DNA of 32,000 nucleotides, taken from positions 120,001 to 152,000 of the forward strand of contig NZ_CP040006.1 of the NCBI RefSeq assembly GCF_005696695.1, given 5' to 3'. Origin of the DNA: Schaalia odontolytica. Its GTDB lineage: Bacteria; Actinomycetota; Actinomycetes; Actinomycetales; Actinomycetaceae. The position numbers and the translations under genes were made by a program. The notes beneath the pieces are model-generated. The model was not told the origin of the DNA. It was given only the letters and a program-made list of their open reading frames with translations, and did not search any database. Below, one piece after another: positions 4,998-9,948 of the stretch (position 1 is its first letter; each line of letters opens with the position of its first letter).

Positions 4998-5028
4998 TGC
5001 GTTTCGTGGACGAGGTCACCTCGGTGGG
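4998..5028 (+). repeat. 31-bp direct repeat, copy at the nrdF-proximal end of the islet
   Basis: TGCGTTTCGTGGACGAGGTCACCTCGGTGGG matches 9918-9948 at 30 of 31 positions (hand alignment; the mismatch is 5003 versus 9923). It contains the stop codon (TCA at 5016-5018 on the + strand) of the 5016..5426 gene. Confidence 0.85.
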
Positions 5029-5426
5029 TCGGATCCTTCTTCGTCGACGTCGATCGGATCGCCGTTCTCATCCAACATGCCGTGGCGCTTCATGTACTGG
5101 TACCGAGCGTCGGCCCAGCGGGGAACGGGTAAGGGAAAGAAATGATAGATGGCAGCGATAAGAAAACAGAGTAGACCGGCGACGATGAGGATACCCGTGA
5201 CGATGTAATAAGAACTGAGGTCGTAAATAGCTTCTCCGAGGCTGCAGATGAAGAAGCCAAGGCCGACAAGTGGGCGTGTTGTTGCTTGGCTTCTCGCGCT
5301 GCTGCTCATCCGCGAGGTGATAATGCGGGAGTTGCTAGAGAAAGTGGTATCGAGATAGGTCTCCATGTACCAGGCACCAATAATCATGAGCCCGAAAATC
5401 GCACCACAGACTTCCCAGAAAATCAT
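5016..5426 (-). CDS. Small 3-TM membrane protein, paralogue 4 of the putative immunity family (C-terminus diverges at the islet boundary)
   Basis: 136 aa, beginning [34 protein letters not shown] lies upstream of ATG 5426. The conserved tail is [27 protein letters not shown], after which it ends [12 protein letters not shown] inside the direct repeat. Confidence 0.8.
5056..5123 (-). repeat. Conserved 3' gene module, copy in paralogue 4 (truncated, 68 bp)
   Basis: GGATCGCCGTTCTC...CCCAGCGGGG aligns with 5496-5589, 5983-6076 and 8166-8259. Confidence 0.8.
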
Positions 5427-5484
5427 GACTGCGAACCTCCACTGTTAATGCTTGCTGCGACTTCGCCGTTGAGTCCAGTGCTCA

Positions 5485-5889
5485 TTAATCTTCTTCCTCC
5501 GAAAGCTCGAACTGCGGGAGGGGATCGCCGTTCTCGTCCAGCATTCTGTGGCGCTTCATGTACTGGTACCGAGGGTCTATCCATCGGGGTACGGGTATCG
5601 GTGAAAAATACCAGACAACACCGATGATGAAAATTGCCAAAGTTATTGCAATAAGTGTCAGTTGGACAAACTGCGGAAATCTTCCATCATTGCCGATTGT
5701 CACGAAGCTGCCGACCAGAAATGCACTTCCTGTTGCAAGGGTGCCGATTGATTGGTACTTGTCATTCATGCGTGTTGCTGAGCTAATGAAGCGCGCATTC
5801 TGGCCAAATTGCGAATCCGTATAAGTCTCGCAATACCACATAGCTAGAATTGCGAGGCTAAACGGTATGCCGATGATTCCCCAAATCAT
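5485..5889 (-). CDS. Small 3-TM membrane protein, paralogue 3 of the putative immunity family
   Basis: The ORF track extends to 6015, overlapping the upstream gene. ATG 5889 (GGAGGTGG upstream) gives MIWGIIGIPFSLAILAMWYCETYTDSQFGQNARF..., aligning with the N-termini of the other paralogues. The tail is [38 protein letters not shown]. Confidence 0.8.
   Translation of the reverse strand: MIWGIIGIPFSLAILAMWYCETYTDSQFGQNARFISSATRMNDKYQSIGTLATGSAFLVGSFVTIGNDGRFPQFVQLTLIAITLAIFIIGVVWYFSPIPVPRWIDPRYQYMKRHRMLDENGDPLPQFELSEEED
5496..5589 (-). repeat. Conserved 94-bp 3' gene module, copy in paralogue 3
   Basis: 6 mismatches in 94 against 8166-8259 by hand alignment. The rest of the gene is strongly diverged. 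Confidence 0.85.
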
Positions 5890-5968
5890 GAGGGTTGTCC
5901 ACCTCCGTGTATAGCGGAATAAGTAGCACTGTTGATGCCTGTTTTGACTTCTCGGTCGAATCCACTGC

Positions 5969-6394
5969 TCATGAATCTTCTTCCTCCGAAAGCTCGAACT
6001 GTGGGAGGGGATCACCGTTCTCGTCCAGCATGCCGTGCCGCTTCATGTATTGGTACCGAGCGTCGGCCCAGCGGGGGACAGGGAATGGGAAGAAGCAAAT
6101 GAAACCTATGACAATAAGTGCTAGCCCAACGATGGCGATACTGAGGGAAGGAATAAGGATGATGCGTATGTTGGGAAGGAGGTCGGTTAGAATTGCCGCC
6201 AGTGCAAACAGTGAGAATCCTGTTGAGATAAATAGTGGAGACAGGGAATCGCCGCTTGTGTTCTTATCGTTTCGATCGCCCATCTCTCGCCATAGTGCGG
6301 CAATAGGGGAGTCTGTGTAAGTTTCCACATACCATGAATACAGGCCGAATAGACCGATGGCTAGGCCCGCAAAGGACCATAGATAGCTCATCAT
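5969..6394 (-). CDS. Small 3-TM membrane protein, paralogue 2 of the putative immunity family
   Basis: 141 aa, beginning MMSYLWSFAGLAIGLFGLYSWYVETYTDSP. AGGAG lies upstream. The tail is [39 protein letters not shown]. Confidence 0.8.
   Translation of the reverse strand: MMSYLWSFAGLAIGLFGLYSWYVETYTDSPIAALWREMGDRNDKNTSGDSLSPLFISTGFSLFALAAILTDLLPNIRIILIPSLSIAIVGLALIVIGFICFFPFPVPRWADARYQYMKRHGMLDENGDPLPQFELSEEEDS
5983..6076 (-). repeat. Conserved 94-bp 3' gene module, copy in paralogue 2
   Basis: 5 mismatches in 94 against 8166-8259 by hand alignment. About 30 bp beyond the stop codon is also shared with the paralogue 3 copy. Confidence 0.85.
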
Positions 6395-8122: not shown

Positions 8123-8559
8123 GGTGTCCCCCATCCCTGATCGTTGTCAGCGGACTCCTCGTCGTCCTCCGAAAGCTCGAACTGCGGGAGGGGATCGCCG
8201 TTCTCGTCCAGCATTCCGTGGCGCTTCATGTACTGGTACCGAGCGTCGGCCCAGCGGGGAATAGGCAATGGAGAAAAACGCCAGATCAGAGAAATGAGTA
8301 TGACAAGCAAGGTGAGGATAAGTAGAGAGTTGATAACGAGGTTTGGCAATTTAAGCTCGTTGCATATGATGACGATGGCTGCAAAAATGAATACGACTCC
8401 TGTTGCGGGGAATCCGATGGCATCTGACTTAGGATGTGCGTGAAAGGTTGTGCTAATAAAGCGTGAATTCTTCCCGTATGACGTATCCGTGAAGGTCTGA
8501 ATGTACCATGTCGCTAAAATAACTGTTCCGAATAGAAGGGCAAGTATTCCCAATAACAT
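8119..8559 (-). CDS. Small 3-TM membrane protein, paralogue 1; putative cognate immunity protein
   Basis: 146 aa, beginning MLLGILALLFGTVILATWYIQTFTDTSYGKNSRF. ATG 8559 lies 2 nt after the toxin stop, and its GGAGGA RBS is formed by the last codons of the toxin gene. The tail is [39 protein letters not shown]. Confidence 0.8.
   Translation of the reverse strand: MLLGILALLFGTVILATWYIQTFTDTSYGKNSRFISTTFHAHPKSDAIGFPATGVVFIFAAIVIICNELKLPNLVINSLLILTLLVILISLIWRFSPLPIPRWADARYQYMKRHGMLDENGDPLPQFELSEDDEESADNDQGWGTP
8166..8259 (-). repeat. Conserved 94-bp 3' gene module, copy in paralogue 1
   Basis: CCTCCGAAAGCTCGAACTGCGGGAGGGGATCGCCGTTCTCGTCCAGCAT...CCCAGCGGGG is shared with the three other paralogues. 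Confidence 0.85.
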
Positions 8560-8561
8560 TA

Positions 8562-9749
8562 TTATCCTCCGTGAATTGCTGTGTGTATCCCGTTGTTCGC
8601 TAGGTCTGCTAGGTAGCTTCCGGTGGCGCTTCCAATAAGTCCGCCAACTACTCCTCCGATAATTCCTCCAGCAAGAATGCCGACGGGGCCTCCGAATGCG
8701 CCAATGGTAGCGCCGATTTTTGCGCCTGCGACACCACCTGCGAAACCTAGTCCGCCGCTGGCACCGCCCTTGAGACCGGCTCTTGCTACCTTCTCGCCCT
8801 GTCCCATCTCCGGGTGGTGGTAGGAGTCCGACTGGTAGCTGTCGTAGGCGCTGACGACTCCGTCGAGGACCGCGCAGGCGCGGCCTGCGACTTTGCCGCC
8901 AATGCGCAATGCGTCGGCGGTCTTGATCGCTCGACTGCCGCCCTTGACGGCGTCCACCCCCGGGACTTTCCAGTTCTTGAGGTTCCCTCGCTCGGTGATC
9001 TGCTTCCAGGGGGACGCGTCTTTGATTCCGGCCGGCGCCTGGTACTTGGCGCCCTTCGCCTGTAGATAGACCGACTCGATCCCGTCTGCGAGGGTATTGC
9101 GCATGGTGTCCGCCCAGCCCGGTAGGCGAGCTGGCACATTCAACCCCGTGGGGAATCCGTACGTGCCGACGAATTTGTTGAACACGGGGAGGAGGGTCGA
9201 CTCCCAGACGGTGGGGTCGATACCCGCGAGGTCGTCGCCGAACAGTGTTTCCGCGTAGGCGAACTTCCTCTGGTTGATCTCGCAGCGTGAGCGCAGCGAC
9301 GCGAAGAAGGCGCCAACGCCGCCCGGGACGTTTGCTGGGTGGCTGATGGTCACTTTCGTTCCGTCACGAGAAACCGTGAGCCCGGCGCCGCTGGCGTCGG
9401 TGACAATGGCTCGAAACTCTGTCCTGATGGGTTTCAGGGTGCCCCCGTAGTCCTCCAGGGCGGATTGCAGCGAGCGGAAACATGACAGCGCATGCTCGCT
9501 CGCGGAGATGACATTCGTCAGGTGCTCGACGACGGTCTCCACCAGCCTGGCTCTCTGATGTTCGACCATCCCTCGGGCGGCCGTCGCGTCGCCAATGGCC
9601 TCGTCGAGTGCCGCGATCGGTTTGTCGCACTGGTCCTTCAGCGACAGGATCGCGTCCACCTTAACCGGAAAGTCCCACGAAAAGGACTCGGCGAATTCTA
9701 CGGTTCCTGCAGATGTGGGAACCGTTGAGGTGGCTGGAAGGGGGGGCAT
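8562..9749 (-). CDS. Putative secreted polymorphic toxin: helical N-terminal region plus C-terminal glycine-zipper (membrane-inserting) module
   Basis: The ORF runs to 9797 (411 aa). ATG 9749 has GGAG 7 nt upstream, giving ~395 aa. No Sec signal peptide. The N-terminal ~100 aa is helical (VKVDAILSLKDQCDKPIAALDEAIGDATAARGMVEHQRARLVETVVEHL...). The C-terminal ~60 aa is GGASGGLGFAGGVAGAKIGATIGAFGGPVGILAGGIIGGVVGGLIGSATG, a GxxxG/A zipper. Confidence 0.75.
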   Translation of the reverse strand: MPPLPATSTVPTSAGTVEFAESFSWDFPVKVDAILSLKDQCDKPIAALDEAIGDATAARGMVEHQRARLVETVVEHLTNVISASEHALSCFRSLQSALEDYGGTLKPIRTEFRAIVTDASGAGLTVSRDGTKVTISHPANVPGGVGAFFASLRSRCEINQRKFAYAETLFGDDLAGIDPTVWESTLLPVFNKFVGTYGFPTGLNVPARLPGWADTMRNTLADGIESVYLQAKGAKYQAPAGIKDASPWKQITERGNLKNWKVPGVDAVKGGSRAIKTADALRIGGKVAGRACAVLDGVVSAYDSYQSDSYHHPEMGQGEKVARAGLKGGASGGLGFAGGVAGAKIGATIGAFGGPVGILAGGIIGGVVGGLIGSATGSYLADLANNGIHTAIHGG

Positions 9750-9917
9750 TGCTTCACTCCGTTGGAACAATCGGGCGACATGCGTGTTGCGCATCACTTA
9801 TTGGTCAGCGTACTCCGGTTGTTTAACAATCTGCAGTGAAACCTGGCCGAAAAGTGCCGACGAATGATGTCGCCTGAGGTCGTGAGCGGATTTCCCATAC
9901 CGCCAGTGGCTGGAGTT

Positions 9918-9948
9918 TGCGTGTCGTGGACGAGGTCACCTCGGTGGG
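9918..9948 (+). repeat. 31-bp direct repeat, copy at the distal end of the islet
   Basis: TGCGTGTCGTGGACGAGGTCACCTCGGTGGG; see 4998-5028. It lies in the divergent intergenic region between the toxin gene and the 9964 gene. Confidence 0.85.

Follow-up and report, generated by a model that had tools for sequence, protein, structure and literature searches.

Which function unites the eight genes that separate nrdF from a divergent TPR-plus-transmembrane gene in Schaalia odontolytica? The question was addressed in a window of 32,000 nucleotides (nt), the whole stretch of DNA that was analyzed (contig NZ_CP040006.1, positions 120,001 to 152,000 of the forward strand). The window showed 99.99% identity to LLVT01000001.1, the draft genome of S. 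odontolytica XH001. This strain (Actinomyces, now Schaalia, odontolytica) is the host of the epibiont TM7x (PMC4742689). The cassette proteins are recorded publicly as hypothetical (APY09_03195-03215 / FBF35_00565-00605); the five families carry no other label there apart from automatic UniRef names for two of them. The comparison of related loci indicated that the cassette is probably a chromosomal polymorphic toxin-immunity locus, most likely served by an Esx (type VIIa) secretion system. The candidate toxin (T), four paralogous proteins with three transmembrane (TM) segments (imm1 to imm4) and three further proteins (a, b and c) are arranged with their neighbors as follows.

9973-10932, plus strand: TPR-plus-transmembrane gene, divergent from T
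8562-9749, minus strand: candidate toxin T, 395 amino acids (aa) from an ATG, with a GTG alternative start at 9797
8119-8559, minus strand: imm1, candidate cognate 3-TM immunity gene, cluster 4
7589-8122, minus strand: a, soluble protein of 177 aa, or 181 aa from an upstream ATG at 8134
6907-7596, minus strand: b, protein of 229 aa with an EspG-like fold (AlphaFold2 model and Foldseek)
6539-6910, minus strand: c, small helical protein of 123 aa
5969-6394, minus strand: imm2, orphan 3-TM immunity paralogue, cluster 5
5485-5889, minus strand: imm3, orphan 3-TM immunity paralogue, cluster 3
5016-5426, minus strand: imm4, orphan 3-TM immunity paralogue, cluster 2, whose last codons enter a boundary repeat
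3931-4893, minus strand: nrdF (Pfam Ribonuc_red_sm, E 6e-97)

The eight co-oriented open reading frames (ORFs) occupy the minus strand between the divergent gene and nrdF. The original prediction, which was drawn from the sequence of the window alone, had described eight such genes between two 31-base-pair (bp) direct repeats, and all of the ORFs as well as the repeats (4998-5028 and 9918-9948, 30/31 positions matching) could be recovered. Its account of the gene junctions was also borne out. The T/imm1 junction reads GGAGGA-TAA-TA-ATG, in which the TAA stop of T is followed by a 2-nt spacer and the ribosome-binding site of the 3-TM gene lies in the last codons of the toxin. The three middle genes are chained by an ATGA overlap between imm1 and a (given an MSLS start for a), an 8-nt overlap between a and b, and an ATGA overlap between b and c. 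A partial repeat copy (77% match, 6521-6551) is followed by the three further 3-TM paralogues, and the four imm proteins of the window were 39-50% identical to one another. The 3-TM genes had been described as AT-richer than their surroundings, and the G+C content over them fell to 0.46-0.52. This AT-richness is located at codon position 3. The G+C content at that position (GC3) ranged over 0.54-0.65 for the imm genes and dropped to 0.43 within the final 60 codons of T (residues 336-395), compared to 0.74-0.79 in the rest of T, a, b and c and 0.81-0.94 in the flanking genes. Within the cassette, a foreign look is limited to the tip and immunity modules. Pfam and NCBIfam searches gave no above-threshold match for T, the imm proteins, a, b or c, and neither single-protein nor profile queries against PDB sequences found a match. 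PADLOC found no defence-system match for the cassette, and promoter and terminator scans revealed nothing informative.

A total of 96 loci, obtained by a genome scan, a metagenome scan and contig look-ups, were compared, all from Schaalia/Pauljensenia-type Actinomycetaceae. The metagenome scan was conducted with the family alignment and contributed its best 80 loci, all at least 66% identical; distant contexts were collected by protein search and contig look-ups. With I denoting a 3-TM gene, the order T - I (or I-I) - a - b - c - 0 to 5 I - nrdF could be observed in nearly all 96 loci, the exceptions being a few loci without a-b-c or with an interrupted toxin. In Schaalia sp. ORNL0103 (L013:10964-12274), an ISL3 transposase (DDE_Tnp_ISL3, E 1e-57) interrupts the toxin after residue ~283; since the immunity genes and a-b-c are intact, the toxin appears to have been lost and the immunity kept.

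The comparison of T among the loci located its variation mainly in one short segment of the window.

8565-8624, minus strand: hypervariable tail of T, residues 376-395, of type E

For most of residues 30-345 of T, mean pairwise identity was 0.8-0.95; it decreased to 0.66 within residues 346-360 and to 0.42 at the very end. Across the loci, the last ~60 residues could be classified into 8 tail types, and the 3-TM proteins into 10 clusters at 70% identity. The tail type predicted the cluster of the adjacent 3-TM protein in 69 of 76 loci. Shuffling of these pairings in 5,000 trials produced a mean of 26.8 and a maximum of 36, a comparison that overstates the significance because many of the loci, which were recovered by toxin similarity, are strains of a few species and non-independent. 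The alignments clearly point to an exchange of the tip independently of the toxin body: 104 locus pairs were at least 95% identical over residues 1-335 of T and had different tails, and 334 pairs with T less than 85% identical had the same tail type. The tail (376-395) and residues ~346-360 together are the likely determinant of immunity specificity.

Three hydrophobic segments can be discerned in the imm proteins of the window, most clearly in imm1. An N-out/C-in topology with a conserved cytoplasmic tail is suggested by hydropathy and the positive-inside rule, and the variable region of the imm proteins is TM2-TM3. No match of the imm proteins or of a to DUF443, DUF5079/5080 or DUF5085 was obtained at E<=1 or at E<=5. 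The orphan 3-TM genes fell in clusters that are cognate elsewhere (clusters 1-4), and in 24 of 28 loci the orphans were of another type than the cognate gene of the same locus. The imm3 type pairs as cognate with type-B toxins in 18 other loci, and the imm4 type pairs in this way with type-C/G toxins in 15 others. Furthermore, toxin-tail stubs precede non-cognate 3-TM genes in 52 loci, and 35 of the 45 detectable stubs were of the type expected from cognate pairing. Three decayed stubs were present in the window.

6413-6448, minus strand: decayed tail stub IASRFNETFLSS, upstream of imm2, resembling the L009-type tail ...ASGFNETFLS
5892-5975, minus strand: decayed type-B tail stub ...TGINSATYSAIHGGGQP, directly upstream of imm3
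5429-5482, minus strand: decayed type-C/G tail stub ...INSGGSQ, upstream of imm4

The L009-type toxin has an imm2-like gene as its cognate immunity gene. In another locus (L086:5729-6393), a nearly intact 62-aa type-E tail stands before an imm1-type orphan and shows a recently displaced module. As the comparison of these loci shows, strains swap the toxin-tip/immunity module by recombination, and displaced modules accumulate downstream as orphans with decaying stubs. The pattern of pairing, swapping and stubs is hard to explain except as a toxin with its specific antidote. The polymorphic toxin/immunity architecture that had been proposed for the window is supported by the 96 loci in all of these features (variable tip, pairing, orphans and stubs) and by modular fusions.

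The array also contains repeats within the imm genes.

8192-8302, 6009-6119, 5522-5632 and 5056-5166, no strand assigned: four 111-nt direct repeats, encoding the conserved cytoplasmic tail of the imm genes

The 3' ends of the imm genes are conserved as 111-156-nt repeats, which supply homology for recombination within the array. In two loci with the same nrdF (L099 and L100; Logan SRR26142730 and SRR26748255), window position 8192 is joined to 5125. The join runs through a 70-nt repeat that is 95.7% identical (window 5056-5125 versus 8192-8261) and removes a, b, c, imm2 and imm3, so that T, a chimeric imm1/imm4 (135 aa) and nrdF remain. The join may reflect genuine recombination in an XH001-like strain, or it may have arisen in assembly. 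In sister runs of these two loci, contigs end exactly at 5125.

T has no Sec signal, its sole hydrophobic segment comprises residues 349-375, and none of its 239 close relatives is named. Two regions could be distinguished ahead of the tail.

9210-9692, minus strand: helical N-terminal domain of T, residues ~20-180, divergent WXG100-type without W-x-G
8625-8912, minus strand: zipper region of T, residues ~280-375, with AYDSYQSDSYHHPEMGxGEK followed by two glycine-zipper helices around a GGP turn

The AlphaFold2 (AF2) model of T was confident for residues ~15-175 (pLDDT, the predicted local distance difference test, 70-93) and consisted of long helices and a small beta-hairpin. BAR-domain and generic long-helix matches of this model in Foldseek (E>0.1) were dropped as uninformative because most of the T model is of low confidence. 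The hhalign comparison of Schaalia-group N-termini with WxG-bearing N-termini gave 98.2% (E 3.8e-14, 152 columns) and includes a common ...A(G)GLTV... motif; 31 relatives of T carry WxG at position 41-56. By this profile comparison, the N-terminal domain of T is homologous to the WXG100-type domains that target proteins to type VII secretion systems (T7SS). The conserved core of 86 T relatives reads ...GGKxAGxAxAVLDG...AYDSYQSDSYxHPEMGxGEKxARAG..., and the zipper glycines G342/G346/G350 and G361/G365/G369 were invariant among them. Ten overlapping GxxxGxxxG starts lie within residues 325-369 of T. Against Pfam Gly-zipper_Omp, T scored 15.4 bits (cut-off 25), and at least one relative passed with 27.0 bits. 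The zipper region is predicted to be a membrane-inserting hairpin. The earlier description of T as a ~395-aa protein without a Sec signal, with a helical N-terminal region and a C-terminal glycine zipper, agrees with the AF2 helices and the GxxxGxxxG series.

An exhaustive profile-free search with T gave 444 cluster representatives at E<=0.001, most of which share only residues ~240-390 and have other N-termini. Pfam analysis of the 86 long relatives revealed 24 Gly-zipper_Omp, 15 WXG100 (best E 7e-8), 7 WXG100_2 and 4 T7SS_signal matches, together with 1 PPE (weak), 1 LXG (weak) and 2 PAAR-like DUF4280 matches. Since the C-terminal module occurs on such varied N-termini, it is a cargo domain mounted on secretion-targeting domains, mostly type VII.

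The role of protein a could be addressed from three loci of more distant genera (L106, L107 and L108), whose toxins reach only 31-33% identity. In these loci, the toxin gene is followed by one for a single 289-307-aa protein. Its N-terminal half is a 3-TM immunity domain with the motifs W..ETY[ST]D and LPLPVP..D..WQWHKRHGLIDENG, as in the 3-TM proteins, and its C-terminal half corresponds to domain a (BLAST E 5e-9 to 6e-8; hhalign 98.3%). Genes similar to b and c follow. Because relatives carry this I+a fusion, T / I+a / b / c can be read as the conserved core, which recurs in the three loci. Upstream of its toxin, L106 has one more immunity+a fusion gene together with a gene similar to b (L106:1653-3355). 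Compared with the fusion, the Schaalia immunity gene is split exactly at the imm1/a ATGA junction, and protein a would be the split-off cytoplasmic domain of the immunity protein. Lpp-LpqN is a family related to DUF1795. Weak Lpp-LpqN matches were found in two homologues of a (E 0.09 and 0.037) and none in the distant fusions, and the UniRef label for a (A0A0V8S081) is DUF1795 domain-containing; the fold could not be confirmed. Proteins of DUF1795, or Eag family, shield the transmembrane helices of type VI secretion (T6SS) effectors (PMC7773334). An ExiA/ExiB-like paralogous pair formed by a and b was excluded, as the two have no detectable mutual similarity.

The AF2 model of b had a mean pLDDT of 62, with 73-90 in the N-terminal 100 residues. 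Its top 13 Foldseek matches in the PDB were all EspG3 or EspG5 (E 3.3e-8 to 5.5e-4, probability 1.00), including EspG3 and EspG5 in complex with PE-PPE dimers; EspG1 ranked 15th (E 1.7e-3). The TM-scores of the top matches were only 0.43-0.49 because half of the model is of low confidence. For b and its distant homologues, no EspG (PF14011) Pfam match at permissive E-values and no PDB sequence match could be found, so b has the EspG fold and is no demonstrable member of the family.

In the alignment of 56 distinct sequences of c, AWIxNG..LGL.AAT.D[F/Y]xCTDxAxADVxREIQRYND was strongly conserved. Almost all of these sequences had F78xxxD82, and two had Y in place of F. In the distant loci, the gene that occupies the position of c (94-100 aa) gave 86% with c in hhalign, and one distant homologue had a weak WXG100 match (E 0.031). 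The motif of c resembles YxxxD/E export signals and those of Lap type, the precedent for FxxxD (PMC12744356). By these features, c is a candidate for a co-secreted targeting partner. The three middle genes had been taken for accessory or chaperone genes, and this now fits b and c; a, in contrast, is better described as the split-off immunity domain.

The export route, which the original prediction had called unknown, is now narrowed, most likely to Esx/T7SSa, by the N-terminal homology of T, the EspG-like b, the motif of c and the literature on Esx in this species. In S. odontolytica F0309, a working Esx system secretes helical-bundle substrates in an eccC-dependent manner (PMC13622651). In S. 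aureus, EsaE has a predicted EspG-like fold and is required for export of the nuclease toxin EsaD (PMC12478183). The glycine-zipper T7SS toxins EsxX, TelE and TspA depolarise membranes; polytopic immunity proteins in the membrane block them from outside (PMC12744356, PMC10434224), and zipper-binding soluble proteins block zipper toxins in the producer cytoplasm (PMC12744356).

In the mechanism proposed here, the helical WXG100-related N-terminal domain of T would serve for targeting. In the producer cytoplasm, T would be held by the EspG-like b and paired with c, the bearer of the [F/Y]xxxD motif, with both proteins binding the N-terminal bundle, and a, as the ancestral cytoplasmic domain of the immunity protein, would probably shield the hydrophobic zipper before export. 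T would be passed to an Esx machine encoded elsewhere in the genome. Outside, the zipper hairpin would enter the membrane of a neighbouring Schaalia cell, and the membrane potential would be lost. The adjacent 3-TM protein would stop T in the membrane, where its variable TM2-TM3 would read the variable zipper flank and tail, and imm2, imm3 and imm4 would confer protection from three further toxin variants of the oral population. A more tentative proposal, possible and on balance doubtful, is that one ancestral immunity protein combined a 3-TM domain acting against incoming toxin with a cytoplasmic Eag/DUF1795-like domain sequestering the cell's own zipper. It would have been split in Schaalia so that the membrane half swaps with the tip while a, the EspG-like b and the PE/Lap-like c stay constant. 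If true, such split two-compartment immunity would be a way of handling membrane toxins not described before, and an antibacterial pore-former would be exported in PE/PPE style by an actinobacterial Esx system outside Mycobacteriales.

Several observations weigh against an Esx-served toxin-immunity locus. The W-x-G motif is absent in the Schaalia-group T, where the aligned position reads EHQ-RARL. In PE/PPE- and LXG-type substrates, such motifs can sit on partner proteins. T itself gave no Pfam or NCBIfam T7SS family match, LXG (PF04740) included. The suggested comparison of predicted structures connected b with EspG but produced no significant PDB neighbour for T, and the EspG match of b is based on a medium-quality model without sequence support. 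The motif of c is in most sequences non-canonical with respect to YxxxD/E, and c lies three genes downstream of the toxin, not beside it. As had been noted, the window contains no core genes of the secretion machinery; no T7SS/Esx core family was detected among its other large ORFs. The overstated significance of the tail pairing also counts here. In four loci (L016, L068, L099 and L100) the toxin and an immunity gene are kept and a-b-c are missing. If these deletions are real, either a strain can carry the toxin gene and survive without a-b-c, or the toxins concerned are silent. They would fit an export role of a-b-c better than an essential antitoxin role, and they would weaken the step in which a acts as a cytoplasmic antidote.

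Several of these observations would also suit a real toxin-immunity locus that is not of type VII. T could be released by lysis, vesicles or another route in the manner of a bacteriocin, or it could belong to an internal toxin-antitoxin or abortive-infection module against phage or epibiont, with b and c having no part in targeting. T lacks WxG and a direct T7SS family match, the window contains no Esx genes, variants without a-b-c exist, and EsxX-type zipper toxins are also toxic from the cytoplasm (PMC12744356). This explanation is nevertheless unlikely, given the WXG100-type homology of the N-terminal domain, the EspG-like fold encoded in the operon and the T7SS or T6SS delivery domains on relatives of the C-terminal module. 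The cassette had no PADLOC defence matches, and the orphan arrays face the variants of other strains; such arrays are sensible only if the toxin reaches other cells, which argues against internal action. As the window belongs to XH001, the TM7x host, the main target could instead be Saccharibacteria epibionts (TM7x on XH001) and not kin, with the 3-TM proteins only preventing self-damage and the diversity reflecting an arms race with the epibiont. The chance of this is small. Orphans matched to the tips of other strains point to conspecific threats, an epibiont target would not select for orphans, and PMC13622651 credits the effect to AesA/AesB and does not describe the present locus. Slimmer still is the chance that the locus is no weapon and encodes a conserved envelope or secretion accessory, e.g. 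a channel for Esx substrates, whose partner duplicates diverged under phage or host-immune pressure. The core does occupy one conserved nrdF-adjacent site in every Schaalia-group locus, the body of T, a, b and c are 90-96% conserved, and, according to an entry in the reference list of PMC13444075, mycobacteria have pore-forming Esx proteins that aid secretion. Against this stand the strict co-variation of tip and partner, the modular swapping, the displaced-tip stubs and the atypical GC3 in exactly the tip and partner modules, as well as the ISL3-interrupted toxin of one genome that kept its immunity genes and the occurrence of the same C-terminal module on PAAR-like T6SS carriers. The Esx-served toxin-immunity locus therefore remains the favoured reading.

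The chromosomal site was compared in the same set of loci. The cassette core was found at the same nrdF site in every Schaalia-group locus, including L014, L015 and L083-L093, whose proteins are only ~62-67% identical. No cassette-free TPR-nrdF junction was seen among the recovered loci and the exact-nrdF contexts, and the latter comprised only the same strain or recombinant deletions inside the array. Because no cassette-free locus was seen, the inserted islet wedged upstream of nrdF, as the locus had first been described, is not demonstrated; of the expected changes in this region across strains, replacement was found for the tip/immunity modules, and absence of the cassette was not. In the more distant genera, the module adjoins aceE/fumC in L107 and L108 and lies near a class-II aminoacyl-tRNA synthetase gene in L106. 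Near-identical copies of the genes were also found under unlikely organism labels, namely Xylanimonas cellulosilytica 352_XCEL (L004, NZ_JVKM01000047.1), Mycobacteroides abscessus (SIA94811.1) and a Thermobifida sp. metagenome-assembled genome. The oddly labelled records (L004 and cluster members P0390 and P0406) look mislabelled or contaminated because they are 87-98% identical to Schaalia.

The boundary repeat occurs in three copies in the window.

9918-9948, no strand assigned: 31-bp direct repeat, upstream copy, between the divergent TPR-membrane gene and T, with the palindrome CGAGGTnACCTCG
6521-6551, no strand assigned: degenerate middle copy, 77% match, overlapping the stop of c
4998-5028, no strand assigned: 31-bp direct repeat, nrdF-proximal copy, ~105 nt upstream of the nrdF ATG

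The 19-bp core of the repeat was found 3 times in the window against 0.03 expected. In 87 of 89 loci the core is conserved ahead of T; divergent species that lack the nrdF-proximal copy are among them, and this nrdF-proximal copy was not detected in the most divergent group of loci. The repeat could be an operator common to the toxin operon, the divergent TPR gene and nrdF; operator, recombination scar and homology anchor may all be considered as roles. It is presumably unlike the NrdR box consensus.

Genes around the cassette were also compared. In all Schaalia-group loci, the cassette is flanked by the genes for the TPR-plus-TM protein (9973-10932, plus strand) and a 191-207-aa multi-TM protein (11020-11643, plus strand). 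The divergent loci L014 and L015 have a 530-aa TPR + AAA+ ATPase between these two genes (L014:3369-6745). The AAA+/TPR gene of L014 was ruled out as EccA (35 bits versus a cut-off of 467) and is of CDC48/FtsH type instead. On the other side, a surface protein of 898 aa with a SpaA/prealbumin fold and an LPKAG-like sorting signal at its C-terminus (1108-3804, plus strand) is encoded between nrdF and fhaA-fhaB-pstP-rodA-pbpA. The gene is present in the window, L004, L006 and L009 and absent in L001, L002 and L014, where nrdF is directly followed by fhaA, and it represents a presence/absence polymorphism adjoining the toxin locus. A patatin-like phospholipase with a C-terminal DUF6363 (27157-28089, plus strand; E 1e-24 and 2e-16) is unrelated to the toxin locus.

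Antibacterial toxins delivered by a T7SS have been studied extensively in Bacillota. For Actinomycetota, their demonstration came only in 2026 and concerned mycobacteria (PMC13444075), and in Actinomycetaceae no Esx effectors had been identified experimentally before AesA/AesB (2026 Schaalia preprint, PMC13622651). Neither of these two papers describes the present locus or glycine-zipper toxins, both have EspG only in their reference lists, and PMC13444075 makes no mention of Schaalia or Actinomyces. The system closest in logic is EsxX/ExiAB/ExiCD of S. aureus (T7SSb; PMC12744356), with soluble (ExiAB) and membrane (ExiCD) immunity. EsxX, like T, has a helical N-terminal domain and an extended C-terminal glycine zipper, and it is a T7SS substrate that depolarises membranes. 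Its membrane immunity genes (ExiCD) also occur as orphans, as the imm genes do here, and a separate conserved soluble protein, which is always found with the toxin, binds the zipper in the cytoplasm, a role for which a is a candidate. However, there is no sequence relationship: T lacks LXG, the imm proteins fall outside DUF5079/DUF5080, and a falls outside DUF5085. In place of the pair of 6-TM proteins in ExiCD, a single 3-TM protein is found here, and the present locus further differs in the soluble domain that is fused to immunity in relatives, the actinobacterial T7SSa setting and the EspG-like protein. TspA/TsaI of S. aureus likewise comprises a membrane-depolarising T7SS toxin followed by tandem polytopic immunity paralogues. 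In contrast to TsaI, the imm proteins have no DUF443 match, and the paralogues here are of different specificity types and accompanied by tip stubs; an accessory trio such as a-b-c is not described in the literature consulted on TspA.

An EspG-fold chaperone acting with a helical substrate and a small helical partner is also known from PE/PPE-EspG of mycobacteria and EsaD-EsaE of S. aureus (PMC12478183). Compared with PE/PPE-EspG, b is shorter (229 aa) and EspG by fold only, T is no recognisable PPE protein, and the cargo is a predicted antibacterial pore-former. The Eat loci (EatA-TapA1/A2-EatI; PMC13444075) share with the present locus an actinobacterial Esx toxin (predicted in the present case) whose N-terminus is a helical bundle, one or more small helical partners and an immunity gene that lies downstream and matches the target compartment in its features. 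The Tap genes are located upstream of the toxin, whereas here the small helical gene lies downstream, after the immunity gene and the chaperone, and the payload is a glycine-zipper membrane domain. TelE/TipE has part of its design in common with the present locus. Orphan cdiA-CT/cdiI and rhs-CT arrays are an established polymorphic-toxin pattern in Gram-negative bacteria. As here, tip and immunity are replaced in them and displaced orphans with truncated toxin ends lie downstream; the delivery system and the phylum differ, and the toxin segment exchanged here is very short (~60 aa). The Eag (DUF1795) chaperones of T6SS effectors (PMC7773334) would resemble a only if its unconfirmed UniRef label is right, and the context here is T7SS, not T6SS, with domain a fused to the immunity protein in relatives.

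The locus appears to hold a polymorphic membrane toxin of T7SSa type, together with protein families that lack annotation, a chaperone resembling EspG, a two-compartment immunity protein that is split here and fused elsewhere, and an unusually well-resolved natural series of tip-immunity pairs. XH001, the model host of TM7x, would thus hold a complete candidate system, with toxin, matched immunity, EspG-like chaperone and partner protein. As Schaalia genetic tools exist (PMC13622651), the locus is directly testable. The natural library of ~8 tips and ~10 immunity types maps specificity to ~60 toxin residues and two transmembrane helices, and the fused and split forms of I and a represent a natural experiment on how producers avoid self-intoxication by membrane toxins. 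The system also links EspG-type chaperones to a predicted antibacterial cargo in a T7SSa organism, and it would explain strain exclusion among the abundant oral Actinomycetaceae.

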